From NCBI GenBank assembly GCA_031459235.1, contig JAVKIY010000002.1, forward strand, positions 5,026 to 69,025: 64,000 nt of DNA. Direction: 5' to 3'. A program made the translations under genes and the position numbers. Source of the stretch: Candidatus Fervidifonticultor tertius. Its GTDB lineage: Bacteria > Sysuimicrobiota > Sysuimicrobiia > Sysuimicrobiales > Humicultoraceae. Under the pieces are notes generated by a model, which worked only from the letters and a program-made list of their open reading frames with translations, ran no database searches and was not told the DNA's origin. Of the stretch, positions 10,754-32,140 are shown piece by piece (position 1 is the stretch's first letter; every line of letters begins with the position of its first letter).

Positions 10754-11734
10754 ATGCTCATGAGGATGCTGCAGCACTGGCTCGCCGTGGTTGCTGCATG
10801 CGCGCTCGTGGCCGTCGGCGGCGCGATGCCGTCGGCGGCGCAGGCGCCGGTGCTCCTGCGGGCAGGAAAGATCACCGCGGACATGAGCGTTCTGCCCGTG
10901 GTGCTCGGCCAGGAGCGCGGCCAATACCAGCGGGCCGGACTGAACGTGCGGTTCGTCGACTTCGGCAGCGGCACGGACGCGATCCGCGCGCTCGTGTCCG
11001 GGGACATCGACATCTTCCTAACCACGATGTTCTCGACGCTGTCCCTGCTCAAGGCGCGGGGGCCCGTCGACGTCTGGGCAACCTTCCAGTTGAGCGACCA
11101 CCCGATCTTTCTCTTCGTGGTCAAGGCTGACTCGCGGGTCCGCGCGGTCGCCGACCTCCGCGGCCGCAAGGTGGGGATCACGCGGTTCGGGTCGGGGTCG
11201 GACTTCCTGGCACGCGCGATGCTGGTGAAGTACGGGCTGCGCGCCGACGAGGACGTGACGCTCGTCCAGACCGGGAGCATCCCTGCCGGCATCGCCGGCG
11301 TGGAGCGCGGCGAGCTCGACGCGGCGGTGGCCTGGCACCCGCTGGCCGCGGAGGGCACTGCGCGCGGGTCGCTGCGTGTGCTCGCGACGGCGCGGGACGA
11401 CGCGCCCGGGCTGGAGCCCACGACGCCGGCGTTCCGCGGCCCGTTCCTCGCGCAGAATGCGCCCGCCGCGCGGCGGTTCATCGAGGCCACCCTGGCCTCG
11501 CTGCGGCAGATCCGCGCGAACCCCGCGGCGGCCGCCCGCGAGGCCGCCGCGCTCCACCAGATCCCCGAGCCGATCGCCCGGACGACCATTGACTTCTACC
11601 TCGACATCTGGACGCGCGACGGGCAGTTCAACGAGAAGGGCCTCATCGACACCCAGCTCTGGCTTATCCGCATCCAGCAGATCGAGCGGATCGTGCCCCT
11701 CAACACGCTTCTCCGCAAGGATCTGCTGCCGTGA
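10754..11734 (+). CDS. ABC transporter substrate-binding protein, NitT/TauT (NMT1-like) family
   Basis: Trimmed to ATG 10754 (GGAGG 4 nt upstream). Signal peptide MLMRMLQHWLAVVAACALVAVGG. Periplasmic-binding-protein pattern resembles aliphatic sulfonate/nitrate/taurine-type SBPs. Confidence 0.7.
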   Translation: MLMRMLQHWLAVVAACALVAVGGAMPSAAQAPVLLRAGKITADMSVLPVVLGQERGQYQRAGLNVRFVDFGSGTDAIRALVSGDIDIFLTTMFSTLSLLKARGPVDVWATFQLSDHPIFLFVVKADSRVRAVADLRGRKVGITRFGSGSDFLARAMLVKYGLRADEDVTLVQTGSIPAGIAGVERGELDAAVAWHPLAAEGTARGSLRVLATARDDAPGLEPTTPAFRGPFLAQNAPAARRFIEATLASLRQIRANPAAAAREAAALHQIPEPIARTTIDFYLDIWTRDGQFNEKGLIDTQLWLIRIQQIERIVPLNTLLRKDLLP

Positions 11735-11750
11735 CCCGCGCGCCGCGGCC

Positions 11751-12530
11751 GTGAGCCTGATCGTCGTCGAGGGGCTCACCAAAGTGTTCCCGGGGCCGAC
11801 CGATGTCGTCGCCCTCGACGGTGTCTCGCTCACCGTGGAGGAGGGCGAGTTCGTCAGCCTGATCGGTCCCAGCGGCTGCGGCAAGAGCACCCTGCTGCAC
11901 ATCCTCGACGGCCTCGAGGCGGCCACAGCGGGGCGGGCCCTGGTCGCGGGCCGCCCGGTGGACGGGCCCGGGCCGGACCGCGGCATGGTGTTTCAGGAGT
12001 ACGCGCTGCTGCCCTGGCGCACAGTCCAGGCGAACGTGGAGCTCGGGCTCGAGTTGCGCCACCTGCCGGCCGCCGAGCGGCGCCGCGTCGCGGGGGACCG
12101 CCTGGCGCTGGTGGGCCTGCAGGGGTTCGAAGGGCGCTACCCCCACGAGCTCTCGGGCGGCATGCGCCAGCGCGTGAGCATCGCCCGGGCGCTCGCGCTT
12201 CAACCGCAGATTCTGTTGATGGACGAACCGTTCGCGAACCTGGACGCGCAGACGCGGTTGCTGCTGGAAGAGGAGCTACTCGCTATCTGGCAGCGGACCG
12301 GGCAGACCGTGCTCTTCGTCACACACGACCTGGCGGAGGCGATCGCGATGGCCGACCGCGTCGTGATCTTCACCGCGCGGCCGGGGCGTATCAAGGACGT
12401 CGTGCGCGTGCCGCTCCCGCGGCCGCGGGACGTGGTGCGCGTGCGCACGACGCCGGAGTTCGCGCGCGTCTACGACCACGTGTGGACCCAGCTGCGGGAC
12501 GAAGTGTTGAAGTCTCGCGAGGTGGCGTAG
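11751..12530 (+). CDS. ABC transporter ATP-binding protein, NitT/TauT family
   Basis: Trimmed to GTG 11751. Walker A GPSGCGKST, signature LSGGMRQRV, Walker B LLMDEP. Confidence 0.85.
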   Translation: MSLIVVEGLTKVFPGPTDVVALDGVSLTVEEGEFVSLIGPSGCGKSTLLHILDGLEAATAGRALVAGRPVDGPGPDRGMVFQEYALLPWRTVQANVELGLELRHLPAAERRRVAGDRLALVGLQGFEGRYPHELSGGMRQRVSIARALALQPQILLMDEPFANLDAQTRLLLEEELLAIWQRTGQTVLFVTHDLAEAIAMADRVVIFTARPGRIKDVVRVPLPRPRDVVRVRTTPEFARVYDHVWTQLRDEVLKSREVA

Positions 12531-12533
12531 CCA

Positions 12534-13334
12534 GTGACGATCGCCGCTACCGTGCGCCCGGGCCGCCCAGGCCTCTGGCGGCGGGACGGCGCGCTGTACC
12601 TGTGGCGGGGGGGCCTGCTCGTCGCGATCCTGGCGCTGTGGGAGCTGGCCGGGCGCTACTGGGTGAACCCGGTCTTCCTGAGCCCGCCCTCGGTGGTTGC
12701 CGGGCGTCTGGTCGCCATGCGCGCCGACCTCCTGCGCCACACCGTCATCACCCTTCAGGAGGTGCTCTCCGGGTTCGCGATCGCCGCGGCCTGGGGCATC
12801 CTGGCCGGCTACGTGCTCGGGGCCAACCGGACCGTGGAGCGCGTGGTCGAGCCGTTCCTGGCGGCGTTCTACGCTGTGCCGATCATCGCCATCGCACCGC
12901 TGCTCATTCTGGTGTTCGGCCTGGGAACGCGGTCGAAGGTGGCGACCGCGGCGATCTACGCCGGCCTGCCGATCGTCGTGAACGTGGTCACCGGCATCAA
13001 GAACGTGGACAGCGTCCTCGTCAAGGCGGTCCGGTCGCTCGGCGCGGGCCGGGCGCAGATCTTTCTCAAGGTGACTCTGCCGGCGTCGCTGCCGTACCTG
13101 CTCGCCGGCCTGCGGTTGGGGTTCACGCTTGCGCTGATCGCTGTGATCGTTTCGCAGATGCTGGCGGCCTACGCCGGGCTGGGGTGGCTGGTCGCGTACG
13201 CGGCCGGCACGTTCCGCACGCCGGACCTGTACGTGGGGCTGGTGGCGCTGGGCGTCCTCGGGATGATCGCCAACGAGGGCCTGCGGCGCCTGGAGTACCG
13301 TCTGATGCGCTGGCACTACGAGCGAGGACGATGA
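12534..13334 (+). CDS. ABC transporter permease, NitT/TauT family
   Basis: 266-aa polytopic protein with the BPD-transporter EAA-like region (VKAVRSLGAGRAQIFLKVTLPASLP). Confidence 0.85.
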   Translation: MTIAATVRPGRPGLWRRDGALYLWRGGLLVAILALWELAGRYWVNPVFLSPPSVVAGRLVAMRADLLRHTVITLQEVLSGFAIAAAWGILAGYVLGANRTVERVVEPFLAAFYAVPIIAIAPLLILVFGLGTRSKVATAAIYAGLPIVVNVVTGIKNVDSVLVKAVRSLGAGRAQIFLKVTLPASLPYLLAGLRLGFTLALIAVIVSQMLAAYAGLGWLVAYAAGTFRTPDLYVGLVALGVLGMIANEGLRRLEYRLMRWHYERGR

Positions 13335-14536
13335 GCGATCGGTCGCTGGATGACGGCATCCCCCACGCGGAGATCGCGCGGCGGCTGGAGCGGGTGCGGG
13401 CCGCGGCTGCGGAGCGCGGGCTGCGCGGGCTGCTGGCGGTCGCGCGGCCGTTCTTCGAGCGGCCTGCGAACGTGGCCTACCTCTCGAACCACTTCCCGCC
13501 CTTTCCCACGGGGATGTACTGGGGGGAGATGCGGGGGATCGGACACGCCGCCCTCGTGGTCCCGCTCGCGGCCGACCCGATCCTGATTGTCGACACGACG
13601 TTCCGCCGCGACCTGGTGGCGATCCAGGACGTCCGCCACGCCCGCTCGAAGTCGGGCCCGGCCATGTCGTTCCTGCCGAACTTCGCCGAGGCGATCGCCG
13701 ACGCGCTGGCGGAGCGGGACCTCGGGGCCGGTCGCGTCGGCCTGATCGGGGACGATGTGATGCCTGTCCGGATGCACCGCGACATCATGGCGCGGCTGCC
13801 GGGGCTCGTCCTCGAGCCGTTCGACGAGGTCATGGGGCGGCTGCGGATGGTCAAGAGCGAGGCGGAGCTGCGGCTCCAGCGTCGGGCCGCCCGCATCTGC
13901 GACGAGGGCTACGCTGGCATGCTGCCCGCGATCCGCGCGGGTGCACGAGAGACCGAGGTCTGCGCCGCGGGATACGCGGCGACGATGGGGGCCGGGGCCG
14001 ACTTCGTCCGCTACGTGCGGACCTACTCGGGGCCGCATTCGGCGATGGGCGTGCGGTGGCCGCAGGCCACCGACCGGCGCCTGGCCGACGGCGAGCTGCT
14101 GGTGACCGACGTTGTCGGCGCGTACTGGGGCCAGCAGTTTGACGTGAACCGCACGTTCGTGGTGGGCCGCCGGCCCTCGGACCGCCAGCGCCGGCAGCTT
14201 GACGCCGCGCTGGAGGCCACGCGCGCGGCCATCGCCGCCGCGCGGCCGGGCGCCCCGGCCGAGGCACTCGTCGCGGCCGCCAACCGGGTCATCGAGGCCC
14301 GCGGGTTCGGGGCGCACGCGCGGCCATTCATCGGACATGGAATCGGCTACGAGACGATGGAGCCGCCGCTGCTGTTCACCGGCGATACGACGCCGCTCGA
14401 GCCTGGGATGGTGCTGTGCGTCGAGCCCGGCATCGAGATCCCGGGCGAGGAAGGCGTGCGGATCGAAGAGGAGATCATCGTCACCGACGGCGAGCCCGAG
14501 GTGATCACGAGGTTCGAGCCGCGCCAGTGGGCGTGA
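13331..14536 (+). CDS. M24 family metallopeptidase (Xaa-Pro peptidase/creatinase fold)
   Basis: Trimmed to ATG 13331 (ATGA overlap with the permease stop). Creatinase-like N-domain plus pita-bread domain. Candidate metal ligands are retained (TDVVG, FDVNRT, GHGIG, VEPG, IEEE). Confidence 0.8.
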   Translation: MSDRSLDDGIPHAEIARRLERVRAAAAERGLRGLLAVARPFFERPANVAYLSNHFPPFPTGMYWGEMRGIGHAALVVPLAADPILIVDTTFRRDLVAIQDVRHARSKSGPAMSFLPNFAEAIADALAERDLGAGRVGLIGDDVMPVRMHRDIMARLPGLVLEPFDEVMGRLRMVKSEAELRLQRRAARICDEGYAGMLPAIRAGARETEVCAAGYAATMGAGADFVRYVRTYSGPHSAMGVRWPQATDRRLADGELLVTDVVGAYWGQQFDVNRTFVVGRRPSDRQRRQLDAALEATRAAIAAARPGAPAEALVAAANRVIEARGFGAHARPFIGHGIGYETMEPPLLFTGDTTPLEPGMVLCVEPGIEIPGEEGVRIEEEIIVTDGEPEVITRFEPRQWA

Positions 14537-15717
14537 TGACCGGGACGCTTCACCAGCGGGTGGGCGCGGCGGTCGACGCCGCAGCGGAGAGTCTCATCGC
14601 GCTCAGCCGCGCGATCCACGCCGCGCCGGAGCCCGCCTGGCAGGAGCACGCCACCGTCCGGCGGCTGGTGGAGTTCCTGCGCGCGCTCCCAGGTGTGGCG
14701 GTCGAGGAGCGGACCGCCGACCTGCCGACGGCCTTCCGGGCCTGGGCCGGCGCCGCGGAAGCCCCGGCCGTCGGGGTCGTCTGCGAGTACGACGCGTTGC
14801 CCGGGCTCGGGCATGCCTGCGGCCACAATCTCATCGCCGCCGCGGCGGCGGGCGCGCTAGTCGGCGTCACCGCGGTCGCCGACCGTCTGCCGGGCCGGGT
14901 GGTGGTGATCGGCTCGCCGGCGGAAGAGGGCGGCGGCGGCAAGATCGTGATGGCCGAGCGCGGAGCCTACGACGGACTGGCCGCGGTGCTCCAGGTGCAC
15001 CCGGCGGACCGCTCCCGGCTCAGCGGCCCGACGATCGGCCTGGCGGTGCGGGTGGTGGAGTTCCGCGGCCGCGCCGCGCACGCCGGTAGCGCGCCCGAGC
15101 GCGGGATCAACGCGCTCGACGCGGTCGTGCAGCTCTTCACCGCGCTCAACGCGATGCGCCAGCAGGTCCCCGACGGCTGCCGGCTGTACGGCATCATCAC
15201 CCGGGGCGGCGAGACGCTCCACACGGTGCCCGACCACACCGCGGCGCAGGTTGGCGTGCGCGCGCCTTCTATGCCGTTGCTGGAGGCGCTGGCGGCCCGG
15301 GTCGAGGACTGCGCGCGCGCCGCGGCGCTCGCGACGGGATGCACCGTGACGGTCGAGCGGCCGCCGCACTCGCAGTACCCGCCGATGCGGCTCAACCGCC
15401 CGCTGGGCCGCCTGCTGGCCGACGCGATGCGTAGCCTGGGTGAGGAGGTCGAGGACTTCCCGCCGGGCCATGAAGGCTACGCGAACGACGCCGCGGTCGT
15501 CAGCCGCCTGGCCCCCGCGGCCCTGCTCAACTTCGGCATCGGCCCGCGCGGGCTGGCCGAGCACTCCGCCGCCTTCGCCGAGGCCGCCGCCTCCGAGGCG
15601 GGCCACCGCGGCATGCTCCGGGCCGCGAAGGCGATGGCGATCGCCGCCATTGAGCTGATCACCGATCCCGCCCTGCGCCGGCGCGTGGGGGACGACTTCG
15701 AGCGAGGCGACACATGA
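14536..15717 (+). CDS. M20 family amidohydrolase/peptidase
   Basis: Trimmed to ATG 14536 (1-nt overlap with the M24 stop). Motif CEYDALPGLGHACGHNLIAAA and GSPAEEGGGGK, typical of M20 amidohydrolases. Confidence 0.8.
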   Translation: MTGTLHQRVGAAVDAAAESLIALSRAIHAAPEPAWQEHATVRRLVEFLRALPGVAVEERTADLPTAFRAWAGAAEAPAVGVVCEYDALPGLGHACGHNLIAAAAAGALVGVTAVADRLPGRVVVIGSPAEEGGGGKIVMAERGAYDGLAAVLQVHPADRSRLSGPTIGLAVRVVEFRGRAAHAGSAPERGINALDAVVQLFTALNAMRQQVPDGCRLYGIITRGGETLHTVPDHTAAQVGVRAPSMPLLEALAARVEDCARAAALATGCTVTVERPPHSQYPPMRLNRPLGRLLADAMRSLGEEVEDFPPGHEGYANDAAVVSRLAPAALLNFGIGPRGLAEHSAAFAEAAASEAGHRGMLRAAKAMAIAAIELITDPALRRRVGDDFERGDT

Positions 15718-16409
15718 AACCCTTCGACAACGTGACGCTCAGCCAGCGGGTGCGCGATCACCTGCGCGACCAGATCCTCGCCAACGCCCTGGCACCCGGC
15801 ACGCCGCTGCACGAGGAGGAGATTGCTGCCCAGCTCGGCATCAGCCGGGCGCCGGTGCGCGAGGCGCTGCGCCTGCTCGCCGCCGAGGACCTGGTGACGA
15901 TCGCCCCTCGCCGCGGCGCGATCGTCAAGGCGCTCTCCCCGCAGGAGTTCCTGGACGCCTATCAGGTGCGCGAGGCACTGGAGGTGCTGGCGATCCGGCT
16001 GGCGATCCCACGCCTGGCCGACGCCGACCTCCAGGGGCTGCGCGATCTGCACGGCGAGATGATGCTGGCCGCCGCGCGCGCCGACGTCGAAGGGTTCTTC
16101 GAGGCGAACACCGCGTTCCACACGGCCCTCGTGGAGGCCTCGGGCAACGCGCGGCTTGCCGAGCTGTACCGTCTGCTGATGAACCAGCTCCGGCGCTACC
16201 GCATGCGGTCGATGTCGCTGCGCGGGGGCTTGGAGCGCTCGATCGCCGAGCACGCCGCGATCCTCGAGGCGGTGACGCGGCGTGACAGCGAGACCGCGAG
16301 CCGCCTGCTGGGCGAGCACATCCGGATGCCGCAGCGGATCCTGGAGGCGGCGCCGGACGGGGAACTGCAGACGCCGGGCGGTCGGCCGGCGACCTCGGGA
16401 GGGCGATGA
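15714..16409 (+). CDS. GntR family transcriptional regulator (FadR-like FCD C-domain)
   Basis: N-terminal wHTH (EEEIAAQLGISRAPVREALRLLAAEDLV) plus a helical FCD-like domain. ATGA overlaps at both ends. Confidence 0.85.
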   Translation: MKPFDNVTLSQRVRDHLRDQILANALAPGTPLHEEEIAAQLGISRAPVREALRLLAAEDLVTIAPRRGAIVKALSPQEFLDAYQVREALEVLAIRLAIPRLADADLQGLRDLHGEMMLAAARADVEGFFEANTAFHTALVEASGNARLAELYRLLMNQLRRYRMRSMSLRGGLERSIAEHAAILEAVTRRDSETASRLLGEHIRMPQRILEAAPDGELQTPGGRPATSGGR

Positions 16410-17473
16410 CTGAAGATAGGAGCGGTGCACCGACGATGAGCGCGACCACCCTGCACTTCGGCGTCAACCTGAACAACCGGGAGCCGCTGCTGGCGCCCCA
16501 GTACGACGTTCCTGCGCTCCTCGACCTGTCGGCCGCCGCGGAGGAGGCGGGCTTCGAGTCGATGTGGGTGGGGGACAGCCTGTTCTCCAAGCCCCGCTAC
16601 GAGCCGCTCGCCCTGCTCGCCGCGATCTCGCAGCGCACGACGCGGGCGAAGCTCGGCACCGCCTGCCTGGTCACGGGCACGCGCAACCCGCTCTATCTGG
16701 CGCTGGAGTGGGCCACGCTGGACGTGATCTCCGGCGGCCGCACGATCCTGGGCGCCTGCATGGGGAACCCCGAGGAAGGCGTTCGACGGGAGTATCGGGC
16801 GCTGGGATTGGACTTCGAGCGCCGGGCCGAGATCTTCGAGGAGGGCCTCCACGTCCTGCGCACGCTGTGGACCGAGGGGCGGATCACCCACAAGGGCCGG
16901 TGGTTCGACTACCAGGACGTCAGCTTCTCCTCCGGCGTCGAGATGGGACCGCTCATGCCCGTGCAAACGCCTCCGCCGATGTGGATTGTCAGCAACCCGC
17001 GGCTCATCCGCGGCGTCGAGGAGCGGCGCGTCGCCCGGGTGATCGACCGCGCCGCGCTGCGGATCGTGCGATACGGCGACGGCTGGATGACGTGCTGCCG
17101 GGCACGACATCCCGAGGAACTCACCGCCCAGCTCGAGCGCATCCGCGAGGCCGCCGCGGCGGAGGGTCGGGACCCTTCCAGCCTGGCGGTGGCCTATCAG
17201 GTGACGATGAACATCGCGGACTCGGAGGCCGAGGCCCAGCGGGGCATCGATGAGTACATCTCCCAGTACTATCCCGAGCTGAGCAAGGCGGTGGACCTGG
17301 GCGAGTGGGGGCCCGTCGGCACGCCGGACCGCATCGCCGCGTGGATCGAGACGTTCGCCCGCGCCGGGGTCACGACGTTCATCTGCCGCTTCGGGGCGCT
17401 GGACCAGTTTGGGCAGGTAGCCCGGTTCGCGCGGGACGTGCTGCCGCGGTTTTCGGCGCGCGCCCGGCGATGA
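16406..17473 (+). CDS. LLM-class (luciferase-like) flavin/F420-dependent oxidoreductase
   Basis: TIM-barrel LLM pattern (FGVNLNN...AEEAGFESMWVGDSLF...LGTACLV). The cofactor cannot be decided from sequence by eye. Confidence 0.7.
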   Translation: MTEDRSGAPTMSATTLHFGVNLNNREPLLAPQYDVPALLDLSAAAEEAGFESMWVGDSLFSKPRYEPLALLAAISQRTTRAKLGTACLVTGTRNPLYLALEWATLDVISGGRTILGACMGNPEEGVRREYRALGLDFERRAEIFEEGLHVLRTLWTEGRITHKGRWFDYQDVSFSSGVEMGPLMPVQTPPPMWIVSNPRLIRGVEERRVARVIDRAALRIVRYGDGWMTCCRARHPEELTAQLERIREAAAAEGRDPSSLAVAYQVTMNIADSEAEAQRGIDEYISQYYPELSKAVDLGEWGPVGTPDRIAAWIETFARAGVTTFICRFGALDQFGQVARFARDVLPRFSARARR

Positions 17474-17519: not shown

Positions 17520-18755
17520 ATGGCGTTGAGCACGCAGGGGGCGGGGCGGGCCGGGCGGGCGGAGCCGCCGCCCGGCGGTATCCGGGTCCGCCACCAGCCT
17601 GTGGGGAGCGACTTCGGGCTCGAGGAGATCCAGGCCATCGCCCAGACCCTGCAGCAGGACGCGCAGACCGACGGGCCGCAGAACCGCGCCTTCGAGGCAG
17701 AGTTCGCCTCGCTGTGCGGGGTGCCATACGCGTTCACGATGGCCAACTGCTCGGTCGCCCTGATCGTGGCCGGCCAGCTCTGCGGGCTGCGGGGGGGCGA
17801 CGAGGTCATTACGACGCCGCTGACGTTTGTGTCCACCAGCACGTCGGTGTTGAGCTGCGGGGCGACGCCGGTGTTCGTCGACGTCGACCCGCGCACATTC
17901 ACCCTGGATCCAGACGCGGTGGCCGCGGCTATCACGCCGCGGACGCGGGCGATCTACGCGGTGCACCTATTCGGCCAGTGCGCGGACATGGACGCCATCA
18001 CCGCGGTTGCGCGCCGCCACGGCCTGCGGGTCATCGAGGACGCCGCCCACGTGGCGGGGGCGACCTACAAGGGCCGGCCGGCGGGATCGCTCGGTGACGC
18101 GGCCGCGTTCAGCTTCCACTCGCGGAAGAACATCACGACGCTGGGCGAGGGTGGCATGCTCACGACCCGGGACGCCGCGTGGGCAGCCAAGGTGCCGCTG
18201 CTGCGCAGCATCGGGGTCAATCATGGCGTCGAGCACCCAGCCGCCGACTACTGGTTGCCCCTGCCCTACGACGTGGAGGCGCCCGACGGGTACATCCCGA
18301 CCAACTACCGGATGAGCGAGGCGCAGGCCGCGGTCGGCCGGGTCCAGCTCCGGCGCCTGGTTGCGAACAACGCCCGGCGTCGGGCGATCGCCCGCCGCTA
18401 CACCGAGGCGCTGGCCGACGTGCCCGGCCTGGTCCTGCCGCACGAGGCGCGAGCGGGCGAACACATCTACTACCTGTACGGCATCCTGGTGGATGAGGCG
18501 GAGGCGGGGTTCGGGCGTGACGCGCTGATGCGCACGCTGTTCTGCGACTACGGCGTGCAGACCATCACCGGGTACCCGCCGGCCTACTGGTTCAGCGTCT
18601 ACCAGAGCCGCGGCTACCCGCGGGGGCTGTGCCCGGTCGCGGAGCGCACTTATGACCGGATCCTGATGCTCCCGGTCTACGCGCGCCTGACCGATGCGGA
18701 GGTCGACTACGTAATCGAGAGCGTCGTCGGGGCCGCCCGCCGCCTGCGCGGGTGA
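17520..18755 (+). CDS. DegT/DnrJ/EryC1/StrS family PLP aminotransferase
   Basis: Start set at ATG 17520 (GGGAGGAGG upstream). Family pattern GDEVITTPLTFVST...IEDAAH...FSFHSRKNITTLGEGGML, with the Schiff-base Lys. Confidence 0.8.
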   Translation: MALSTQGAGRAGRAEPPPGGIRVRHQPVGSDFGLEEIQAIAQTLQQDAQTDGPQNRAFEAEFASLCGVPYAFTMANCSVALIVAGQLCGLRGGDEVITTPLTFVSTSTSVLSCGATPVFVDVDPRTFTLDPDAVAAAITPRTRAIYAVHLFGQCADMDAITAVARRHGLRVIEDAAHVAGATYKGRPAGSLGDAAAFSFHSRKNITTLGEGGMLTTRDAAWAAKVPLLRSIGVNHGVEHPAADYWLPLPYDVEAPDGYIPTNYRMSEAQAAVGRVQLRRLVANNARRRAIARRYTEALADVPGLVLPHEARAGEHIYYLYGILVDEAEAGFGRDALMRTLFCDYGVQTITGYPPAYWFSVYQSRGYPRGLCPVAERTYDRILMLPVYARLTDAEVDYVIESVVGAARRLRG

Positions 18756-19802: not shown

Positions 19803-20164
19803 TGGCGCCGGTGAGGGTCGTCAACCTGGGCCAGGTGGAGCCCATCGCGCTCCCGCAGGGGAGCTGGAGCCGGATGCTCGTGACCGCCAGGACCGCCGGG
19901 GGGAACCGGTCCTCGCTCGGCTACTCGGTGTTCACCCCCGGGACCGTGCTCGGCATGGTCTCGCACGAGGTGGAGGAGGTGGCCTACGTCGTGGCCGGGC
20001 GCGGCGAGCTGCGGCTGGACGAGGGCGCGGTTACCTTCGGCCCGGGCGACGCGTTGTTCATCCCGCCGCACACCTGGCACGCGGTGGCGAACACTGGCGA
20101 CGAGGACGTGGTGATGGTCTTCGGGTTCCCGCATCCCGACTACCCGCCGACGGCGCGGCGGTGA
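19802..20164 (+). CDS. cupin domain protein
   Basis: Start set at ATG 19802 (1-nt overlap with the upstream stop). Cupin motif 2 is GPGDALFIPPHTWHAVAN. Motif 1 is degenerate (SHEVEEVAYVVAG, single His). Confidence 0.7.
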   Translation: MAPVRVVNLGQVEPIALPQGSWSRMLVTARTAGGNRSSLGYSVFTPGTVLGMVSHEVEEVAYVVAGRGELRLDEGAVTFGPGDALFIPPHTWHAVANTGDEDVVMVFGFPHPDYPPTARR

Positions 20165-25357: not shown

Positions 25358-26451
25358 AGATGCGAGATGGACGTACTGCCCGCACGGCGAGGGGCGCGCT
25401 GGGGCTTCTCGTCGTCCTGCTCGTCATCGCGGCCGGCCTCTCCACCGGCCAGGCCGCGCCGGCGCGCCGGCTAGTCGTCTACAGCGCGGCACCACGCGAC
25501 TTCACCGAGTCGCTCAAGCGCGACTTCGAGGCGGAGAACCCCGGCGTGACGGTCGAGATTCTGCCGGGGCTGGGCGCGGAGGCCATCCTGACGCGGCTCG
25601 ACGCCGAGCGCGCCTCGCCGCGCGCGGACGTCTTCCACTCCGGCGCGGTGTTCGAGTTCATCGAGGCCACCAAGAAGGGACTGCTGGAACCCACCAACCC
25701 CCGGGAGATCGCCGGCGTCGCCCCGTCCACCCTGTTCCTGGGCGGCTCCCGCATCCCGCTGCACGACCGGGAGGGCCACTGGTACGTGTGGGGGTACTCG
25801 CTCGGCGTGATCGGCTACAACCGGGACCGGCTCGCCGCGCTGCGCCTGCCGGTGCCCCGCACCTGGTCCGATCTGACCAACCCGGCCTACAAGGGCCACG
25901 TGGTGTTCAACATGCCGCAACTCTCCTCGTCGGCGTTCAACACGATCGTCGCGCTCTACCAGATCATGGGGCCGCAGGGCCTGTGGAGTTACTGGGATCG
26001 GCTCAACGAGAACCTGGCGTTCTACTCCCGGTCCACCTCGGCGCTCTACACGCTGGTGGGCCGCGGCGAGATCCCGATCAGCTTCGGCACCGCCCGCTCC
26101 TACCACGAGGGCAAGGTCCGCGGGCAGGCCGTCGAGGTCGTCTACCCGACCGAGGGCGCGTGGGTCTTCGCCACCGCGGTGGGGGTGGTCCGCGGCGCGC
26201 CCAACGCCGATCTGGCGCGGCAGTTCATCAAGTTCATCCTGTCCCCGTCGGGGCAGATCAACTCGGCGAACAACTACCAGAACCCGGTGCGTGCCGGGAT
26301 CCGTGCCACCGTCCACCCCGTCGACCTGTCCATCGAGGCGGTCGTGCGCGAGGTGCCCAAGGTGGTCGTTGTGGACATCGAGACGGCGACCCGCATCCGG
26401 CCCGAGGTGATGCGGCGCTTCGACCAGTACACGTCCGGGCGTGCGCGCTGA
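25354..26451 (+). CDS. ABC transporter substrate-binding protein (FbpA/thiamine/2-aminoethylphosphonate-type, family 1)
   Basis: Trimmed to ATG 25354 (ATGA overlap). Signal peptide. The VVYSAAP...VFHSG...YPTEGAWV pattern resembles Fe(III)/PhnS-type SBPs. Confidence 0.7.
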   Translation: MKMRDGRTARTARGALGLLVVLLVIAAGLSTGQAAPARRLVVYSAAPRDFTESLKRDFEAENPGVTVEILPGLGAEAILTRLDAERASPRADVFHSGAVFEFIEATKKGLLEPTNPREIAGVAPSTLFLGGSRIPLHDREGHWYVWGYSLGVIGYNRDRLAALRLPVPRTWSDLTNPAYKGHVVFNMPQLSSSAFNTIVALYQIMGPQGLWSYWDRLNENLAFYSRSTSALYTLVGRGEIPISFGTARSYHEGKVRGQAVEVVYPTEGAWVFATAVGVVRGAPNADLARQFIKFILSPSGQINSANNYQNPVRAGIRATVHPVDLSIEAVVREVPKVVVVDIETATRIRPEVMRRFDQYTSGRAR

Positions 26452-28132
26452 GCCCGTCGCCATCGAGCGGACGCGAGCGTGGGGCCGGCCCGCCGGCCCC
26501 ACGCTCGACCCGCTGCGCGTCCTCGAGGTCCTGACCGGGGCGTTCCTGATCGCGTTCCTCATCGTCCCCATCGGCGCCATCGTCGTGGACTCGGCCGCGC
26601 TGATCGCGCGCGGCGGCCTGTGGGAGTTTCCGGACTTCGTCGGCTATCTCGTGCGCCTCACCCGTAACTCGCTGGTGGTGGCCTCGATCGTCACGGTGAT
26701 CTGCGTCGCGGTGAGCCTGCCGCTCGCGGTGCTGGTCGGGCGGGTGCTGCCGGCGCAGCGGCTGCTGCCCGTCGCGCTCACGCTCCCCCTGCTGGCGCCG
26801 CCATTCGTGTACGCGTTCGCCACCATCATCCTGTTCGGGCGCGTGGGTGTCATCACCCAGCTCCTGGCGCCGTTGGGCATCCGTATGCCCGAGATCTACG
26901 GGTTGCCGGGGATTGTGGTCACACACGTGCTGCACTTGATCCCGCTCTCCTACCTGACGATCGCCGCCGGGCTGCGGACCGTGCCGAAGGCGATCGAGGA
27001 GTGCGCGATCTCGCTCGGCAGCACCCCGATGCAGGTCCTGGTCCGGATCGTCTTGCCGTATGTCTCCTCGTACGTCTACATGGCGTCGTTGCTCGTCTTC
27101 CTGGCGTCGTTCGGCGATGTGGGCGCGCCCTTGCTGGTCGGCGGCCAGTACCTGGTACTGCCCACCGAGGCGTTCACGCGGTTCACGAGCTTCATCGCGG
27201 ACCGGCGCGTGCCGGTGCTGCTGTCGAGCTGGATCGTCGCGATCTCGGTGGTGATCCTGGTCGTGGTGCGCGCGCTCATGCGGCGGACCGCGATCGTGCA
27301 CACCTTCGGGGTCGAGACCTATACCTATGCGCAGCCGTCGTGGCGGGTCGTCGGCGCGGTGTTCTGCTGGGGCATCGCCGCGGTGCTGTTCGTCCCCTAC
27401 CTGGTGATCTTCGTCTCCTCGCTGGCGACCGTGTGGGGCCCCGACCTGCTCCCGAAGGGCTACACCCTCAACCACTACCAGGCCCTGTGGCGGTCGGTGG
27501 AGCCGCTGCGCAACTCGCTGCTCGTCTCCGGGCTCGCCACGCCCATCGCCGTCATGCTGGCGGTGGTCATCGGCCGCATGATGCGGGACGGCGGCCGGCT
27601 CGGCGCCGCGTTGGACTACGTCACGCTGCTGCCGTTCGTCGTCTCGGGGGTGGTCGTGGGCATCGGGCTCGTCCGTGTCTACTCTCCGCTGGACACCCTC
27701 TCGCCCGTCGTGCCGCTGATCACCGGCCCCGCCCTGTTGGTGGTCGCGATGGTGAGTCGCCGCGTCTCGTATCCGATGCGCGTGCTCGCCGCCGCCTACA
27801 CGCGCATCGACCGCAGTCTGGAGGAGAGCTCGCTCAGCCTGGGGGCCTCGCCCGCGACGACGTTCTGGCGCATCACGCTGCCTCAGCTCGCGCCGGCGAT
27901 CGTCGCGGCGCTCATCATCACCTTCATCCAGATCATCAAGGAACTCGGCGCGACCCTGATCGTCTACCGGCCGGGATGGGTGACCCTGCCGGTGCAAATC
28001 TACGCCTACGCGCTGGAGGGCAACCTGGGCCGCGCCGGCGCCGTGTCCATGGTCCTGCTGGCCATCGTGGCGGCTGGCACCGCGGCCGCGGGCCTGTTGG
28101 GCCGGCGGACCCGGGGGGAGGTCGCGTCATGA
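26441..28132 (+). CDS. ABC transporter permease, duplicated two-module type
   Basis: 563-aa polytopic protein with two BPD-transporter modules, as in FbpB/ThiP-type permeases. Confidence 0.85.
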   Translation: MRAEPVAIERTRAWGRPAGPTLDPLRVLEVLTGAFLIAFLIVPIGAIVVDSAALIARGGLWEFPDFVGYLVRLTRNSLVVASIVTVICVAVSLPLAVLVGRVLPAQRLLPVALTLPLLAPPFVYAFATIILFGRVGVITQLLAPLGIRMPEIYGLPGIVVTHVLHLIPLSYLTIAAGLRTVPKAIEECAISLGSTPMQVLVRIVLPYVSSYVYMASLLVFLASFGDVGAPLLVGGQYLVLPTEAFTRFTSFIADRRVPVLLSSWIVAISVVILVVVRALMRRTAIVHTFGVETYTYAQPSWRVVGAVFCWGIAAVLFVPYLVIFVSSLATVWGPDLLPKGYTLNHYQALWRSVEPLRNSLLVSGLATPIAVMLAVVIGRMMRDGGRLGAALDYVTLLPFVVSGVVVGIGLVRVYSPLDTLSPVVPLITGPALLVVAMVSRRVSYPMRVLAAAYTRIDRSLEESSLSLGASPATTFWRITLPQLAPAIVAALIITFIQIIKELGATLIVYRPGWVTLPVQIYAYALEGNLGRAGAVSMVLLAIVAAGTAAAGLLGRRTRGEVAS

Positions 28133-29238
28133 CGAAGATCCGGCTGGCCGAGCTGAGCCGCGCGTTCGGCCCGGTGTGGGCCGTCCGCGGCGTCTCCCTG
28201 GAGGTGCGCGAGGGGGAGTTCTTCTCGCTGCTCGGCCCCTCGGGGTGCGGCAAGACCACGACGCTGCGCATGGTGGCCGGCCTCGAGCGTCCCACCGCCG
28301 GGCACATCTACTTCGGCGACGACGATGTCACGCACACCCCCCCGCAGCACCGCAACGTGGGGCTGGTGTTCCAGAGCTACGCCGTGTTCCCGACGATGTC
28401 GGTCGCCGACAACGTGGCGTACGGGCTGCGCATCCGCAGGGTGCCCGGCGCGGAGATACGTCGGCGCGTGGCCCAGATGCTCGAGATCGTAGGGCTCGGG
28501 GCCCTCGGCGCCCGCATGCCCGGCCAGCTCAGCGGCGGTCAGCTCCAGCGGGTCGCGCTCGCGCGGGCACTGGCCATCCAGCCGCGTGTCCTGCTCCTGG
28601 ATGAGCCGCTCTCGAATCTCGACGCCAAGCTCCGGGTCGAGGTGCGCGCCGAGATCCGACGCCTGCAGCGTGAGCTCGAGATCACCACGCTCTACGTTAC
28701 CCACGACCAGGAGGAGGCGCTGTCGATGTCCGACCGTATCGGCGTCATGCACGCCGGCCGGCTGGATCAGGTCGGCGTGCCCGACGAGATCTATCGCCGT
28801 CCGGCGACGCGGTTCGTCGCGCGGTTCGTGGGCGAGGGTACCCTGCTGGACGGGGTGCTCGTCCGCGACGGCGCCCGCGCACGTGTCGCGGTCGGTGGGT
28901 TCGAGGTGCCGGTCGGCGAAGTGTCTGCGCCGCGCGCCGGAGCGGTCTGGGTGTGCATCCGGCCCGAGGGGGTGCGGCTCCTGGACAGGACCGCGGCCGG
29001 CGGTATCGGCGGAATCGTCGAGTACGTGGAGTTTGTAGGCCCGTCGCTGCGCGCCGACGTGCGCGTCCCCGGCCTGCCTAGACTGTTGCGGCTCGCGGGG
29101 TCGTCGGTGGATCTGGCCGGCCGCGTGCGCACGGGCGACGCGGTTCGCCTGGCGGTGGATCCGGCCGGGGTCGCGGTGGGCCCGGCGGAAGCGCCGGAGG
29201 CCGAGCCGGTCGCCGCGGGTGGCGGCGCGCGAGCGTGA
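28129..29238 (+). CDS. ABC transporter ATP-binding protein (PotA/FbpC-like with C-terminal TOBE-type domain)
   Basis: Trimmed to ATG 28129 (ATGA overlap). Walker A GPSGCGKTT, signature LSGGQLQRV, Walker B LLLDEP. Confidence 0.85.
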   Translation: MTKIRLAELSRAFGPVWAVRGVSLEVREGEFFSLLGPSGCGKTTTLRMVAGLERPTAGHIYFGDDDVTHTPPQHRNVGLVFQSYAVFPTMSVADNVAYGLRIRRVPGAEIRRRVAQMLEIVGLGALGARMPGQLSGGQLQRVALARALAIQPRVLLLDEPLSNLDAKLRVEVRAEIRRLQRELEITTLYVTHDQEEALSMSDRIGVMHAGRLDQVGVPDEIYRRPATRFVARFVGEGTLLDGVLVRDGARARVAVGGFEVPVGEVSAPRAGAVWVCIRPEGVRLLDRTAAGGIGGIVEYVEFVGPSLRADVRVPGLPRLLRLAGSSVDLAGRVRTGDAVRLAVDPAGVAVGPAEAPEAEPVAAGGGARA

Positions 29239-29987
29239 CCACCGCCGGCGCCATCCGCGCGGTGCTGTTCGACTTCCACGAGACACTGATCTCCGCGGAC
29301 CGCTGGTTTGCGATGGAGATCGGCGGCATCGCGGTCGAGATGCTCCAGCACCTGGGGCTGTGGGCCGGCGCACCGCCCGAGGAGGACCGACGCCGGATCG
29401 AGGCCGCCTTCGCGCGGCTGCGCGCGGTCATCAACGGCGCCGGCGTGGAGTACTCGGCGCAGGAGATCGGCCGCCGGATGTTGCGCGCCGTCGGCCGGGA
29501 CGGCGTGTCGGTCGAGGCGCTCGACGCCGCAGCCGCGCGGCTGTTCCGCGCCTACCTCGCCGACGTCACGGTGAAGCCCGGCGCCGCGCGCGCGCTCGAC
29601 GCGCTGGCGGTCGCGGGACTGCGCCTGGGCATCGTGTCGAACGTCGCCTATGGGCCGTTCATCGCCTGGGCGCTTGAGGCGCACGGGCTGCGCGAGCGCT
29701 TCCACGCGATCGTGGCCTCCGCCGAGGTCGGCCTGCGCAAGCCGCGGCGCGAGATCTTCGCAGCCGGCCTCGAGGCCGTGGGCGTGGCGGCGGCCGAGGC
29801 GGTCTACGTCGGCAACGACTACCTCAAGGACGTCGTGGGGGCGAAGCTCGCCGGGATGCGGGCGATCTGGATGCCCGACGCCGGGGCCGCAGACTACCGA
29901 CCGGACACGGCCATCCACCCCGACGCCGTGGTCGGGGGACTCGACGAGGTGCCGGCCGTCCTGGCCGCGTGGGCGGGCGCGGCGTGA
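29235..29987 (+). CDS. HAD superfamily hydrolase, non-canonical motif I
   Basis: GTGA overlap start. Motif I reads LFDFHET (29271-29285), so the Asp+2 general acid is replaced by His. Motif II is GIVSN, motif III is RKP, motif IV is VGNDYLKDVVG. Confidence 0.7.
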   Translation: MTTAGAIRAVLFDFHETLISADRWFAMEIGGIAVEMLQHLGLWAGAPPEEDRRRIEAAFARLRAVINGAGVEYSAQEIGRRMLRAVGRDGVSVEALDAAAARLFRAYLADVTVKPGAARALDALAVAGLRLGIVSNVAYGPFIAWALEAHGLRERFHAIVASAEVGLRKPRREIFAAGLEAVGVAAAEAVYVGNDYLKDVVGAKLAGMRAIWMPDAGAADYRPDTAIHPDAVVGGLDEVPAVLAAWAGAA

Positions 29988-32140
29988 TCGCCCCCGAGGT
30001 GCGCCGGCTGCTGCTCGGCGAGGGACGGTTCCTCGACGACCTGACCGTCGACGGCGCGCTGCACGCCCGCTTCGTGCGTAGCCCGCACGCGCACGCGGCC
30101 GTGCGCGCGGTCGACGCCGCCGGCGCTCTGGCCCTGCCCGGTGTGGTGGCCGTGTTGACCGGCGCCGACCTCGGGTCGGTCAATGCGCCGCTGCCCCTGC
30201 GCTTCGGCCACCCCGGTCTATGCGCCCCCCAGCTCCCCCGGCCACTCGCCACGGAGGTGGTCCGTCACGTGGGCGAACCGGTCGCGGTCGTCCTCGCCGG
30301 GTCGCGGTACGCGGCCGCGGACGCGGTGGACCACGTGGTCGTGGACTACGCGGCGCTGCCTGCGGTCGCCTCCGTGGACGCCGCGCTGGCCCCCGGCGCG
30401 CCGCGGGTGCACGCCGTCCTGGAGGACAACGTCGCCGGCACCTACCGGTGGCGGGTGGGCGATCCCGACGCCGCGTTCGACGGGGCGCCCGTGCGGTTCG
30501 CCGTGCGCCTGACCATCAGCCGCGGCGCGGCGGTGCCCATCGAGACGCGGGGCATCCTGGCCGTCCCCGACGACGGCGGCCTCCGCGTCTACGCGTCTAC
30601 GCAGAGCCCCCATTACCTCAGGCGCACGCTGGCCCGTGTGCTCGGGTTGCCGGAGGCCGCCATCCGGGTAACCGCGCCCGACGTGGGCGGCGCCTTCGGC
30701 TCCAAGGGCGGCCTGCCTCGCGAGTACGCCGTGGTGGCCGCGGCGGCGCTGCGGCTCGGGCGCCCCGTCCGGTGGGTCGAGGAGCGGCGCGAGTCGTTCG
30801 TTGCCTGCCACCAGGACCGCGACCAGGTCCACGAGGTCGAGGTCGCCGCCACGCGCGCCGGCGAGCTGCTGGCCCTGCGCGACCGGTTCGTGCTCGACCT
30901 CGGCGCGTACGCGTCCTACGAGCACCTGCTCGGCATCCACACCGTGAACCATCTGATCGGGCCCTATCGGCTGCCGCACTTGGAGGTGGATTTGCGGTCG
31001 GTCTACACGCACCGCGTGCCCACCGGCGCGTACCGGGGCGCGGGGCGCCCCCAGGGCACCTTCGTCATCGAGCGCGTCATGGACCACCTGGCGCGCGCGG
31101 TGGGCGCCGATCCGGCGGTCGTGCGGGCGCGCAACCTGATCGCGCCCGAGGCCATGCCCTACGACACCGGGCTGCGCGCGCCCGGCGGGCACGAGGTCCG
31201 CTACGACAGCGGTGACTTCCCGGCGGTGCTGCGCACCGCGCTCGACCGTTTCGGCTACGAGGCCTGGCGCGAGCAGCAGCGGCGCCGGCGCGCGCAGGAT
31301 GGCGTGCGCCTGGGCCTGGGCGTCGCCCTCTACGTCGAGGAGACCGCCTCGCACGGTCACGAGACCGTGACCCTGCGGCTGGAACCCTCCGGGACCGCCA
31401 CGCTCTCCGCGGGGCCGCCTGCGGCCGGGCAGGGTCTGGCGCCGCTGCTGGCGCAGATCGTCGCGCGCGAGGTCGGGATCGCGCCGTCGGCGGTCACGGT
31501 GGCCAGCGGGGACACCGCCGCGGTGGACGAGAGCTTCGGGACGTTCGGGAGTCGGGTGGCGACCATGCTCGGCAACGCCACCGCGCTCGCCGCCCGAGAG
31601 CTGGCCGCGCGGCTGCGCGCCGGCGCGCGCGACGGCCCGATCGAGGTACGCGCGGCGTTCGCGCCCTCGGGCGCCGCGTGGTCCAGTGGCGCGCACGTGG
31701 CCGCGGTCGAGGTGGACCCCCAAGCCGGCACGGTGCGCGTGGTCCGCTACCTCATTGTGCACGACTCGGGCGCGGTGCTCGACGAGGCCGCGGTCCGGCG
31801 CCAGATCCTGGGCGCCGCGGTGCAGGCCATCGGCGGCGCGCTGGCCGAGCGCCTGGTCTACGACGGCGACGGGCAGCCGCTGGTGACCACGCTGGCCGAC
31901 TACGCGGTGCCGCGCGCTACCGACGTCCCGCCGATCGAGGTCGTGCGCCTGGAGACGCCGTCACCGCATAACCCGCTGGGTCTCAAAGGCGCCGGGGAGA
32001 GCGGCATCATGCCCGCCTACGCCGCGCTCGCCGCGGCGGTCGAGGACGCCGTGGACGACCCGGCGGTGACCGTGGATGCCTTGCCGGTCTCCTCGCAGGA
32101 CGTGTGGCGGTGGCTGGCGAGGGCGAGGGGGCCCGCCTGA
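29984..32140 (+). CDS. molybdopterin-binding large subunit, form II CoxL-like (paralogue 2)
   Basis: Start set at GTG 29984 (GTGA overlap). Active-site loop AYRGAGR (31028-31048). Blocks GGAFGSKG and the C-terminal GAGESGI. Confidence 0.85.
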   Translation: MIAPEVRRLLLGEGRFLDDLTVDGALHARFVRSPHAHAAVRAVDAAGALALPGVVAVLTGADLGSVNAPLPLRFGHPGLCAPQLPRPLATEVVRHVGEPVAVVLAGSRYAAADAVDHVVVDYAALPAVASVDAALAPGAPRVHAVLEDNVAGTYRWRVGDPDAAFDGAPVRFAVRLTISRGAAVPIETRGILAVPDDGGLRVYASTQSPHYLRRTLARVLGLPEAAIRVTAPDVGGAFGSKGGLPREYAVVAAAALRLGRPVRWVEERRESFVACHQDRDQVHEVEVAATRAGELLALRDRFVLDLGAYASYEHLLGIHTVNHLIGPYRLPHLEVDLRSVYTHRVPTGAYRGAGRPQGTFVIERVMDHLARAVGADPAVVRARNLIAPEAMPYDTGLRAPGGHEVRYDSGDFPAVLRTALDRFGYEAWREQQRRRRAQDGVRLGLGVALYVEETASHGHETVTLRLEPSGTATLSAGPPAAGQGLAPLLAQIVAREVGIAPSAVTVASGDTAAVDESFGTFGSRVATMLGNATALAARELAARLRAGARDGPIEVRAAFAPSGAAWSSGAHVAAVEVDPQAGTVRVVRYLIVHDSGAVLDEAAVRRQILGAAVQAIGGALAERLVYDGDGQPLVTTLADYAVPRATDVPPIEVVRLETPSPHNPLGLKGAGESGIMPAYAALAAAVEDAVDDPAVTVDALPVSSQDVWRWLARARGPA

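Follow-up and report, generated by a model that had tools for sequence, protein, structure and literature searches.

Cofactor breakdown is among the least mapped areas of microbial metabolism. To our knowledge, genes for bacterial vitamin B6 catabolism have been established essentially only for the Mesorhizobium loti-type route, whose pathway-I cluster in strain MAFF303099 we take to be mlr6785-mlr6807. Fermentation of another pyridine, nicotinate, by Eubacterium barkeri involves a nicotinate dehydrogenase (PDB 3HRD), a 6-hydroxynicotinate reductase and an enamidase. Aerobic degradation is represented by the nic cluster of Pseudomonas putida KT2440 and related 2,5-dihydroxypyridine pathways, with NicAB, NicC, NicX, NicD, NicF and NicE (PMC7910607, PMC3831237). 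Here, a run of 19 genes from Candidatus Fervidifonticultor tertius is compared with these systems. It occupies positions 10754 to 32140 of a 64-kb stretch of contig JAVKIY010000002.1, DNA that originates from hot-spring metagenomes and was analyzed over its whole length (the window). The run is probably a catabolic island for vitamin B6 compounds, that is, pyridoxamine, pyridoxal, their phosphates and 4-pyridoxate.

Homologues of vitamin B6 enzymes in the run and around its relatives

Three adjacent genes, g11 to g13 (numbered by their order in the run and listed below), match enzymes of B6 degradation. For g11, the best NCBIfam match is the pyridoxamine-pyruvate transaminase model NF046070 (351 bits, cut-off 600; next family 206), and the best match in the Protein Data Bank (PDB) is 2Z9U (278 bits, next 174), an entry labelled aspartate aminotransferase that we take to be the M. 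loti pyridoxamine-pyruvate aminotransferase (PPAT). For g12, model NF042925, 5-formyl-3-hydroxy-2-methylpyridine-4-carboxylate (FHMPC) dehydrogenase, ranks first (402 bits, cut-off 500; next 245), as does 4OM8 in the PDB (333 bits, next 190). The g13 protein matches pyruvic oxime dioxygenase at 102 bits, NovR at 84 and Mlr6791 (2Z7B) at 80, and its residues H98, H100, H162 and E79 are conserved in 59 sequences; it has the fold and metal motif of the 3-hydroxy-2-methylpyridine-4,5-dicarboxylate (HMPDC) decarboxylase family and is proposed to be an HMPDC decarboxylase analogue. These data support the view that g11, g12 and g13 are homologues of the enzymes for three steps of M. loti pathway I, namely pyridoxamine to pyridoxal, FHMPC to HMPDC, and HMPDC to 3-hydroxy-2-methylpyridine-5-carboxylate (MHPC). 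Because their scores are below the NCBI equivalog cut-offs, they are called homologues, and isofunction is not proven. A tblastn search with g12 against plasmids for a canonical annotated B6 cluster returned generic 3-hydroxybutyryl-CoA dehydrogenases alone.

The original prediction had described the run as a catabolic unit for an imported nitrogen heterocycle, an account that is correct, and as a pathway that could not be assigned, which it now can be, through the best matches of g11 to g13. Its domain calls for these genes (class V aminotransferase, 3-hydroxyacyl-CoA-dehydrogenase-like enzyme, class II aldolase) were reproduced, and NCBIfam and PDB matches identify them more specifically as B6-pathway homologues. 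Profile annotation of each protein likewise recovered every other Pfam assignment made earlier, and we agree that the gene set matches no textbook operon. The features are as follows.

10678..10689, no strand: candidate GntR operator, perfect palindrome TCTGTCGACAGA, 65 nt before the g1 ATG
10754..11734, plus strand: g1, substrate-binding protein of ABC importer 1 (ABC1), NMT1/THI5 fold, NitT/TauT type (Pfam NMT1, E 1e-20)
11751..12530, plus strand: g2, ATPase of ABC importer 1 (Pfam ABC_tran)
12534..13334, plus strand: g3, permease of ABC importer 1 (Pfam BPD_transp_1)
13331..14536, plus strand: g4, M24 metallohydrolase, accessory (Pfam Creatinase_N and M24)
14536..15717, plus strand: g5, M20 amidohydrolase of the N-acyl hydrolase subfamily, accessory (passes NCBIfam TIGR01891, 165 bits, cut-off 154)
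15714..16409, plus strand: g6, GntR/FCD transcription regulator (Pfam GntR and FCD)
16406..17473, plus strand: g7, luciferase-like (LLM) oxidoreductase, F420-type by best matches, core (Pfam Bac_luciferase)
17520..18755, plus strand: g8, DegT/DnrJ-type aminotransferase dependent on pyridoxal 5'-phosphate (PLP), accessory (Pfam, E 2.5e-108)
18795..19802, plus strand: g9, NicX/M29-fold metalloprotein, core signature gene (PF26233 in homologues, fold match)
19802..20164, plus strand: g10, small cupin, core (Pfam Cupin_2; 2-His-1-Glu motif H55, E59, H93)
20175..21344, plus strand: g11, pyridoxamine-pyruvate transaminase homologue (best match NF046070)
21364..22314, plus strand: g12, FHMPC dehydrogenase homologue (best match NF042925)
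22311..23054, plus strand: g13, class-II-aldolase-fold metalloenzyme (Pfam Aldolase_II)
23051..25357, plus strand: g14 (Mo1), molybdenum hydroxylase large subunit, core (three Pfam domains)
25354..26451, plus strand: g15, substrate-binding protein of ABC importer 2 (ABC2), PhnS2/ThiB-like (Pfam SBP_bac_6)
26441..28132, plus strand: g16, fused double permease of ABC importer 2 (Pfam BPD_transp_1, two stretches)
28129..29238, plus strand: g17, ATPase of ABC importer 2 with a TOBE domain (Pfam ABC_tran and TOBE_2)
29235..29987, plus strand: g18, HAD-family hydrolase (Pfam HAD)
29984..32140, plus strand: g19 (Mo2), second molybdenum hydroxylase large subunit, accessory (three Pfam domains)
32148..36775, minus strand: Liv-type ABC importer, five genes (two ATPases, two permeases and a Peripla_BP_6 binding protein; Pfam)
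36802..39222, minus strand: Mo3, third molybdenum hydroxylase large subunit, which heads the convergent operon (Pfam)

The gene context of g9 in other genomes was then compared. A scan of one genome per species in GTDB found g9 relatives in at least 264 species; the best 80 of these loci were inspected, and travel counts were made on 47 loci of at least 17 kb. Carriers of the best 80 are all metagenome-assembled genomes (MAGs), mostly of Thermoleophilia and Chloroflexota, with a few labelled Armatimonadota, Bacillota or Bipolaricaulia. The class II aldolase fold accompanies g9 in 47/47 loci, the cupin and a 2Fe-2S subunit (Fer2) in 46 each, the GntR regulator in 45-46 (by threshold), the LLM protein in 45, the Mo-hydroxylase large subunit in 43 and a flavin adenine dinucleotide (FAD) subunit (FAD_binding_5) in 36-37. 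Less constant companions are a metallo-beta-lactamase (MBL) protein (34-36), the FHMPC dehydrogenase homologue (33), and a transaminase, a short-chain dehydrogenase/reductase (SDR) and a Bmp binding protein (25-26 each). About 70 loci have the LLM, g9, cupin and aldolase genes as an unbroken block. Of the 47 loci, 44 have one or more B6 markers and 19 have all five. At locus L001, three neighbours score above the cut-offs of NCBIfam models: the SDR for the pyridoxal 4-dehydrogenase equivalog (383 bits against 325), the MBL protein for the 4-pyridoxolactonase equivalog (351 bits against 325) and the Bmp protein for "putative B6 ABC transporter substrate-binding protein" (411 bits against 400); the best PDB matches of the SDR and MBL proteins, 3NDR and 3AJ3, concur. 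The core is tied to vitamin B6 because the markers are so widespread and these L001 neighbours pass curated B6 models. For the lactonase, SDR and Bmp components of these clusters, NCBIfam already has models.

Other assignments account less well for the same genes. Salvage, in which vitamers would be imported and interconverted to supply PLP, could make use of the importers, the candidate HAD phosphatase and the pyridoxamine transaminase homologue. However, pyridoxal kinase and pyridoxine phosphate oxidase are absent, irreversible oxidation of the vitamin precedes the steps of the FHMPC dehydrogenase and decarboxylase homologues, and salvage offers no role for Mo-hydroxylases, the NicX/M29-fold protein or the cupin; we consider it very improbable. 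Catabolism of ectoine (Doe) or of 2-aminoethylphosphonate (PhnW/PhnX/PhnSTUV) is less credible still. The combination of M24 hydrolase, deacylase and aminotransferases has a Doe-like logic, to which the original prediction had pointed, and Phn-like parts are present in the class V aminotransferase, the HAD hydrolase and an importer resembling PhnS2/PhnT2/PhnU2. Both pathways were rejected on curated-model scores. For Doe, these are 43-55 bits against cut-offs of 550-613 (g4, 52-55 bits against 575-613 for ectoine hydrolase; g5, 43 bits against 550 for DoeB2), and the ectoine analogy does not hold. For Phn, g11 scores 126 bits with PhnW compared with 351 for the pyridoxamine transaminase, g18 has no match to phosphonoacetaldehyde hydrolase (phosphonatase) models, and the importer proteins are far under the Phn cut-offs, g15 for example reaching 135 bits with phnS2 (cut-off 393) and 71 bits with sfuA (cut-off 93).

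Layout of the run, candidate operator and mosaic architecture

Genes were called by frame analysis of third-position GC (GC3) and start-codon context in DNA of 72% G+C. This approach recovered what the original prediction had claimed for the layout: 19 plus-strand genes from the ATG at 10754 to the stop at 32140, with start/stop overlaps at 12 of 18 junctions (g3/4, g4/5, g5/6, g6/7, g9/10, g12/13, g13/14, g14/15, g15/16, g16/17, g17/18 and g18/19) and gaps of 16, 3, 46, 39, 10 and 19 nt, in order, at the other six. The same scan yielded no credible minus-strand gene between these limits. Alternative GTG starts exist for g5 (14527), g10 (19790) and g19 (29969); they shift overlap lengths and leave the count of 12 as it is, and the gene calls of a 95%-identical relative adopt the first two. 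The layout is no assembly artefact, because two hot-spring runs supply independent contigs across 16417-19406 and 21792-27000, and a 197-kb contig from another sample, with an M24 protein 95% identical, has the same gene order and left flank as the window.

On its left, the run is bordered by an AT-richer spacer of 127 nt, behind two unrelated genes of the geranylgeranyl-reductase and TIGR00375 families, and on its right by a convergent gene whose stop is 7 nt from that of g19. A scan for terminator-like sites on the plus strand found none, and a promoter scan gave nothing useful in DNA of this G+C content. Metatranscriptome contigs from run X12 span many junctions, but between 9000 and 46000 their depth is flat, at about 8, over flanks and over convergent and divergent junctions, so they are unusable for operon mapping. 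Coding and intergenic DNA have equal depth of about 8 in this run, which is labelled metatranscriptomic, and the library probably carries genomic DNA. Elsewhere in the window, an ANTAR-domain response regulator adjoins a double-GAF histidine kinase (5192-7460, minus strand), with a ZnuA-type metal importer alongside (2701-5188). A separate minus-strand cluster at 46134-55730 contains hydantoinase/oxoprolinase A and B subunits, a SBP_bac_6-type ABC importer and an IclR regulator, and looks like a further catabolic unit of lactam or hydantoin type.

The palindrome TCTGTCGACAGA occurs once in the window. Its core, CTGTCGACAG, is retained in the 95% relative, where the surrounding spacer has diverged. 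A strict FadR-type operator pattern was too narrow, being found at 6/68 loci; the looser motif TGTNNACA was informative, with a 26-fold enrichment in the 220 bp upstream of the cluster GntR gene at related loci (38 of the 122 occurrences in 1.25 Mb are in those upstream stretches, at 36/68 loci). The placement of the palindrome before g1 fits one regulated unit starting at g1, and the site is considered a candidate operator. A second copy of the operator-like core TGTCGACA is found at 13588-13595, within the M24 coding sequence; it may be due to chance, because the window contains five TGTNNACA sites. In a related MAG (L025, 2650-2800), TCTGTCGACAGA stands about 10 nt downstream of a promoter-like site, TTGACA-N17-TAGAAT. 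Just downstream of a promoter is the classical position of a repressor operator.

The run is a mosaic. It had been proposed that M24, M20, GntR, LLM, DegT, M29 and cupin genes travel together as a core; the counts contradict this for three members, with M24 at 2/47 loci, close M20 (at least 40% identical) at 2/47 and DegT at 1/47. HAD is found at 2-3 loci, Mo2 at 2, and importers ABC1 and ABC2 at 0/47. M24, M20, DegT, HAD, Mo2 and both importers are lineage-specific additions. The nearest architectures, L007 and L012, read LLM2-M24-M20-GntR-LLM-g9-cupin-transaminase-FHMPC dehydrogenase-aldolase-(FAD)-Fer2-Mo1-HAD-Mo2, with the cupin not detected in L012. The window differs from them in four respects: importer 1 precedes M24, DegT separates LLM from g9, importer 2 separates Mo1 from HAD, and the FAD and Fer2 genes are gone.

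Such rarity is what would be seen if unrelated operons (two importers, peptidases, a sugar aminotransferase and Mo enzymes) merely abutted a small B6 core by chance, under several promoters and inducers, and the position of DegT, between the two largest gaps of the run here (46 and 39 nt) and behind Mo2 in L012, agrees with this. Yet L007 and L012 show M24-M20 and HAD-Mo2 in unchanged positions around the core, the core of L089 and L090 encloses ABC1, and the 95% relative preserves the entire order. The dozen overlapping junctions, the lack of any plus-strand terminator-like site in the scan, and an operator-type palindrome before g1 and not before GntR argue in the same direction, and chance juxtaposition is judged quite unlikely. 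The alternative raised with the original prediction, that well-characterized independent operons abut here, is borne out in part: a conserved core is combined with accessory modules, but these modules do not correspond to well-characterized operons of their own, and in other genomes several are again found with this core.

Among the accessory genes, the g1 family is rare: a search of 5.8 billion proteins gave 13 homologues at E<1e-15. Homologues with 65-68% identity lie between the cupin and aldolase-fold genes in L089 and L090; g2 travels with g1 in L089, L090 and L091 (66-73% identity), and g3 also travels with g1. ABC1 is a probable carrier of the pathway substrate, its ligand being inferred, because a family so rare sits inside the core on two other contigs. 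In L091, which belongs to the same MAG as L012, the ABC1 homologue is on a contig other than that of the core and adjoins another LLM gene as well as a distant SBP_bac_6-type importer (about 29% identity to g15 and g16). In the window's second importer, g15 is absent from all 80 related loci.

The M24 metal ligands, which had been described as intact, are visible in the g4 sequence as the motifs D259, D271, H336 and E365 and the run at E379-381. Close homologues of g4 (at least 60% identity) are limited to the lineage of the window, and those of 44-48% identity, at the two loci examined, stand in unrelated housekeeping contexts. We propose that g4 may be an amide hydrolase of the lower pathway, g5 a deacylase, and g18, which is paired with Mo2 in L007 and L012, a putative B6-vitamer phosphatase.

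Core enzymes and a putative route through the pyridine ring

The signature protein g9 is widespread and strongly conserved. Of 1368 homologues scored, the best 120 are 76-92% identical. Identity across phyla is 70-92%, and at 50% clustering (E<=0.001) the family has 2078 representatives. These numbers point to a large uncharacterized superfamily of short M29/NicX-like proteins. In JGI and NCBI records, the family is labelled "leucyl aminopeptidase (aminopeptidase T)" or "aminopeptidase". No NCBIfam model matched g9 or the cupin g10, and a sequence search of the PDB with g9 found no match. Homologues of g9 carry the precomputed Pfam assignment PF26233 "NicX", and in a profile search NicX is its best solved relative, with a marginal E of 0.012. 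The best Foldseek matches of its AlphaFold (AF2) model (mean confidence, pLDDT, 70) are NicX structures 7CN3 and 7CUP, with template-modelling (TM) scores of 0.73 and 0.71, ahead of the longer M29 aminopeptidases; g9 has 335 residues and NicX 348.

At the level of residues, the picture is more divided. E195, E202, E264, H288, H308 and D310 are conserved across 69 diverse relatives, in a pattern that resembles the five-ligand site of M29 hydrolases, and H104, the likely equivalent of NicX His105, is conserved as well. NicX binds Fe(II) through His265, Ser302, His318 and Asp320 (PMC7910607). The H308-x-D310 motif of g9 fits His318-x-Asp320, E264 falls in the His265 region and aligns with the metal-ligand Glu319 of the M29 enzyme PepS, and no equivalent of Ser302 can be placed; with a profile match to NicX that is only marginal, the ligand alignment is partial. 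No NicX orthologues to anchor this alignment were found among the best 150 representative matches (to E 1e-24), all of which are closer relatives. The g9 protein is proposed to be either a ring-opening enzyme or an amide hydrolase.

The cupin gene is directly 3' of g9 in 75/76 loci, and the residues H55, E59 and H93 of its motif are at least 95% conserved in 74 sequences. The LLM gene g7, very strongly conserved, is directly 5' of g9 in 68/73 loci. Its best NCBIfam match is the F420 family TIGR03619 (145 bits, cut-off 167), and its best solved relatives are F420-dependent enzymes, at no more than 50 bits.

Three large subunits of molybdenum hydroxylases, g14, g19 and Mo3, are recognized by the domains Ald_Xan_dh_C, MoCoBD_1 and MoCoBD_2, which each carries, as the cofactor-binding subunit should. 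The nearest solved relative of Mo1 is the alpha subunit of 4-hydroxybenzoyl-CoA reductase (329 bits); at related loci the Mo1 gene is preceded by the Fer2 and FAD_binding_5 genes counted above. Mo2 has orthologues in L007 and L012 only; among solved structures, it is nearest to 6-hydroxypseudooxynicotine dehydrogenase (380 bits) and quinoline 2-oxidoreductase (365). Mo3 orthologues are found directly 3' of the core cluster in L090 (72% identity) and L089 (52%), and in L089 an orthologue of the Liv-type binding protein (65% identity) also follows the core. Because of these orthologues, the convergent six-gene operon at 32148-39222 (Mo3 and the Liv-type importer) probably belongs to the same island, which would then extend to 39222. 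The five loci with multiple Mo enzymes (the window, L007, L012, L089 and L090) are all without SDR and MBL genes, and are not phylogenetically independent; at least one of the dehydrogenase/lactonase pair is present in 36/45 other loci. Divergent from Mo3 is a gene of the AIR-synthase family (39301-40293, plus strand), weakly HypE/ThiL/SelD-like with all scores below cut-offs and with no orthologue seen in L089-L091; a role in cofactor maturation is conceivable.

Pathway I continues from MHPC with enzymes that are missing here. No domains of the MHPC oxygenase (a FAD monooxygenase) or of the 2-(acetamidomethylene)succinate (AAMS) hydrolase (an alpha/beta hydrolase) were detected in 10754-39222. 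In L001 and L004, the 10 kb to either side likewise contain no FAD_binding_3 monooxygenase or alpha/beta hydrolase. A FAD protein encoded at 8033-9292 belongs to the geranylgeranyl reductase family. Core genes left without a job in the known pathway are those for the Mo-hydroxylase, g9, the cupin and the LLM protein.

A putative route can be drawn that employs them. Both importers, ABC1 and ABC2, would bring in vitamers, from which the HAD protein g18 would strip phosphate. Mo2, perhaps with Mo3, might oxidize pyridoxal to 4-pyridoxate, replacing the dehydrogenase and lactonase pair of other clusters, and the F420-type LLM g7 might oxidize the 5'-alcohol of 4-pyridoxate or act later as a reductase. 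B6-derived pyridines have a single free ring carbon, C6, beside the nitrogen, which is the position that molybdenum hydroxylases attack. Mo1 is thus envisaged to hydroxylate C6, turning a 3-hydroxypyridine into a 2,5-dihydroxypyridine-type (2-pyridone) compound, and the ever-adjacent g9 and g10 would open the ring. This order is proposed because C6 is the sole free carbon and because 2,5-dihydroxypyridine-type rings are the substrate class of NicX (PMC7910607). M20 (g5) and M24 (g4) would hydrolyze the N-acetyl and amide products to acetate, ammonia and a C4 acid, and GntR (g6) would repress the unit at the palindrome before g1.

For the ring-opening step itself, three variants are envisaged. 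That g9 is a NicX-like Fe(II) dioxygenase is our tentative first choice; a cupin dioxygenase assisted by g9 as an M29-type amidohydrolase is possible rather than expected, and F420H2-dependent ring reduction by g7, followed by hydrolytic opening by g9, is unlikely. The Mo-first lower pathway, taken by itself, has a little less than an even chance of being right. The same near-balanced confidence applies to the suggestion that the core (GntR, LLM, g9, cupin, aldolase-fold decarboxylase and Mo-hydroxylase) may represent a third, undescribed bacterial route through the B6 ring, starting with C6 hydroxylation by a Mo enzyme with water-derived oxygen as opposed to the textbook flavin oxygenase. No literature on a B6 route of Mo-hydroxylase or NicX type was found, subscription journals being outside coverage.

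Several observations weigh against the B6 reading of the run as a whole. With g11 and g12 under their equivalog cut-offs (351/600 and 402/500), exact substrates could differ, and g13 resembles Mlr6791 less than it does pyruvic oxime dioxygenase. Pyridoxal 4-dehydrogenase and 4-pyridoxolactonase were not found in the window by tblastn or Pfam, nor was a recognizable 4-pyridoxate dehydrogenase. Seven queries on the 64 kb of the window, and inspection of the next 10 kb rightward, found no FeS or FAD partner genes for the three Mo large subunits, whereas orthologous clusters keep 2Fe-2S and FAD subunits adjacent to the Mo large subunit; the stop of the aldolase-fold gene overlaps the Mo1 start at the exact site where they would be expected. 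In its C-terminal Mo-cofactor domain, Mo2 lacks, by an in-frame deletion, about 48 residues that its L012 orthologue and its window paralogue have; it retains the GAGE motif, which we take to hold the catalytic Glu. Because g9 keeps an M29-type Glu (E264) where NicX uses His265, its dioxygenase chemistry is not secured. Hydroxylation at C6 is a chemical inference only, DegT (g8) has no assigned role, and three importers and three Mo enzymes seem to exceed the need of one vitamin.

Some of these points would be explained if the island degraded another substituted pyridine or nicotinate-like compound, such as an alkaloid of plants or microbes or a pyridine with hydroxymethyl or carboxy groups, with enzymes recruited from B6-pathway families and B6 not being the physiological substrate of the window variant. 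The sub-threshold scores of g11 and g12 are compatible with this, as is the lack in the window of the two enzymes that pass curated B6 models in its relatives. The core in L089 has no B6 marker in view, which is also true of 3/47 loci, and the extra Mo-hydroxylases and importers suggest a broader substrate range. On the other hand, g11 and g12 match B6 enzymes far better than any other family, markers accompany nearly all of the related loci, and in L007 and L012, the closest architectures, the order of the PPAT and FHMPC dehydrogenase homologues is that of the window. A different pyridine is therefore considered unlikely, and vitamin B6 compounds remain the preferred substrates.

Comparison with known systems

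If this assignment is right, a lower pathway other than the described one would be the usual one in soil and hot-spring phyla that are abundant and mostly uncultured. The recycling of B6 and of 4-pyridoxate, the end product in which it is excreted, could then be attributed to organisms of these habitats. It would also provide a first function for the large, highly conserved g9 family, now mis-annotated as "aminopeptidase T". New chemistries of Mo-hydroxylase, F420-LLM and NicX/M29-fold proteins would be approachable with defined, purchasable substrates.

With M. loti pathway I, the run shares PPAT, FHMPC dehydrogenase and aldolase-fold decarboxylase homologues and a GntR-family regulator, and related loci, unlike the window, also have the pyridoxal 4-dehydrogenase and 4-pyridoxolactonase that pass curated models. 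It differs in having no MHPC oxygenase, AAMS hydrolase, FAD-dependent 4-pyridoxate dehydrogenase or pyridoxine 4-oxidase, and instead a Mo-hydroxylase of the three-subunit type, a NicX/M29-fold protein, a cupin and an F420-type LLM protein; in the window, the missing dehydrogenase and lactonase are accompanied by extra Mo large subunits. The nic cluster offers a parallel for the proposed chemistry, in which a Mo-hydroxylase would place oxygen beside the ring nitrogen, a NicX-fold enzyme would act on a 2,5-dihydroxypyridine-type ring and amide hydrolysis would follow. However, g9 is only about 17% identical to NicX and has a Glu in the His265 ligand region, and homologues of NicC, NicD, NicF and NicE are absent here. 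The published Hpo enzyme did not oxidize pyridoxal or pyridoxamine (PMC3831237).

Nicotinate fermentation in E. barkeri may be a parallel to the third ring-opening variant, with Mo-hydroxylation, ring reduction and hydrolytic opening by a metallo-amidohydrolase, but the reductase here would be an F420-type LLM protein and the hydrolase an M29-fold protein, both unrelated to the E. barkeri enzymes. M29 aminopeptidases (AmpS, PepS and AmpT) resemble g9 in fold, in candidate metal ligands, in the correspondence of E264 to PepS E319 and in the H-x-D motif. They are longer, at about 400-415 residues, and their target-normalized TM scores are lower (0.55-0.62, against 0.71 for NicX), and the genomic context of g9 is catabolic, not proteolytic.

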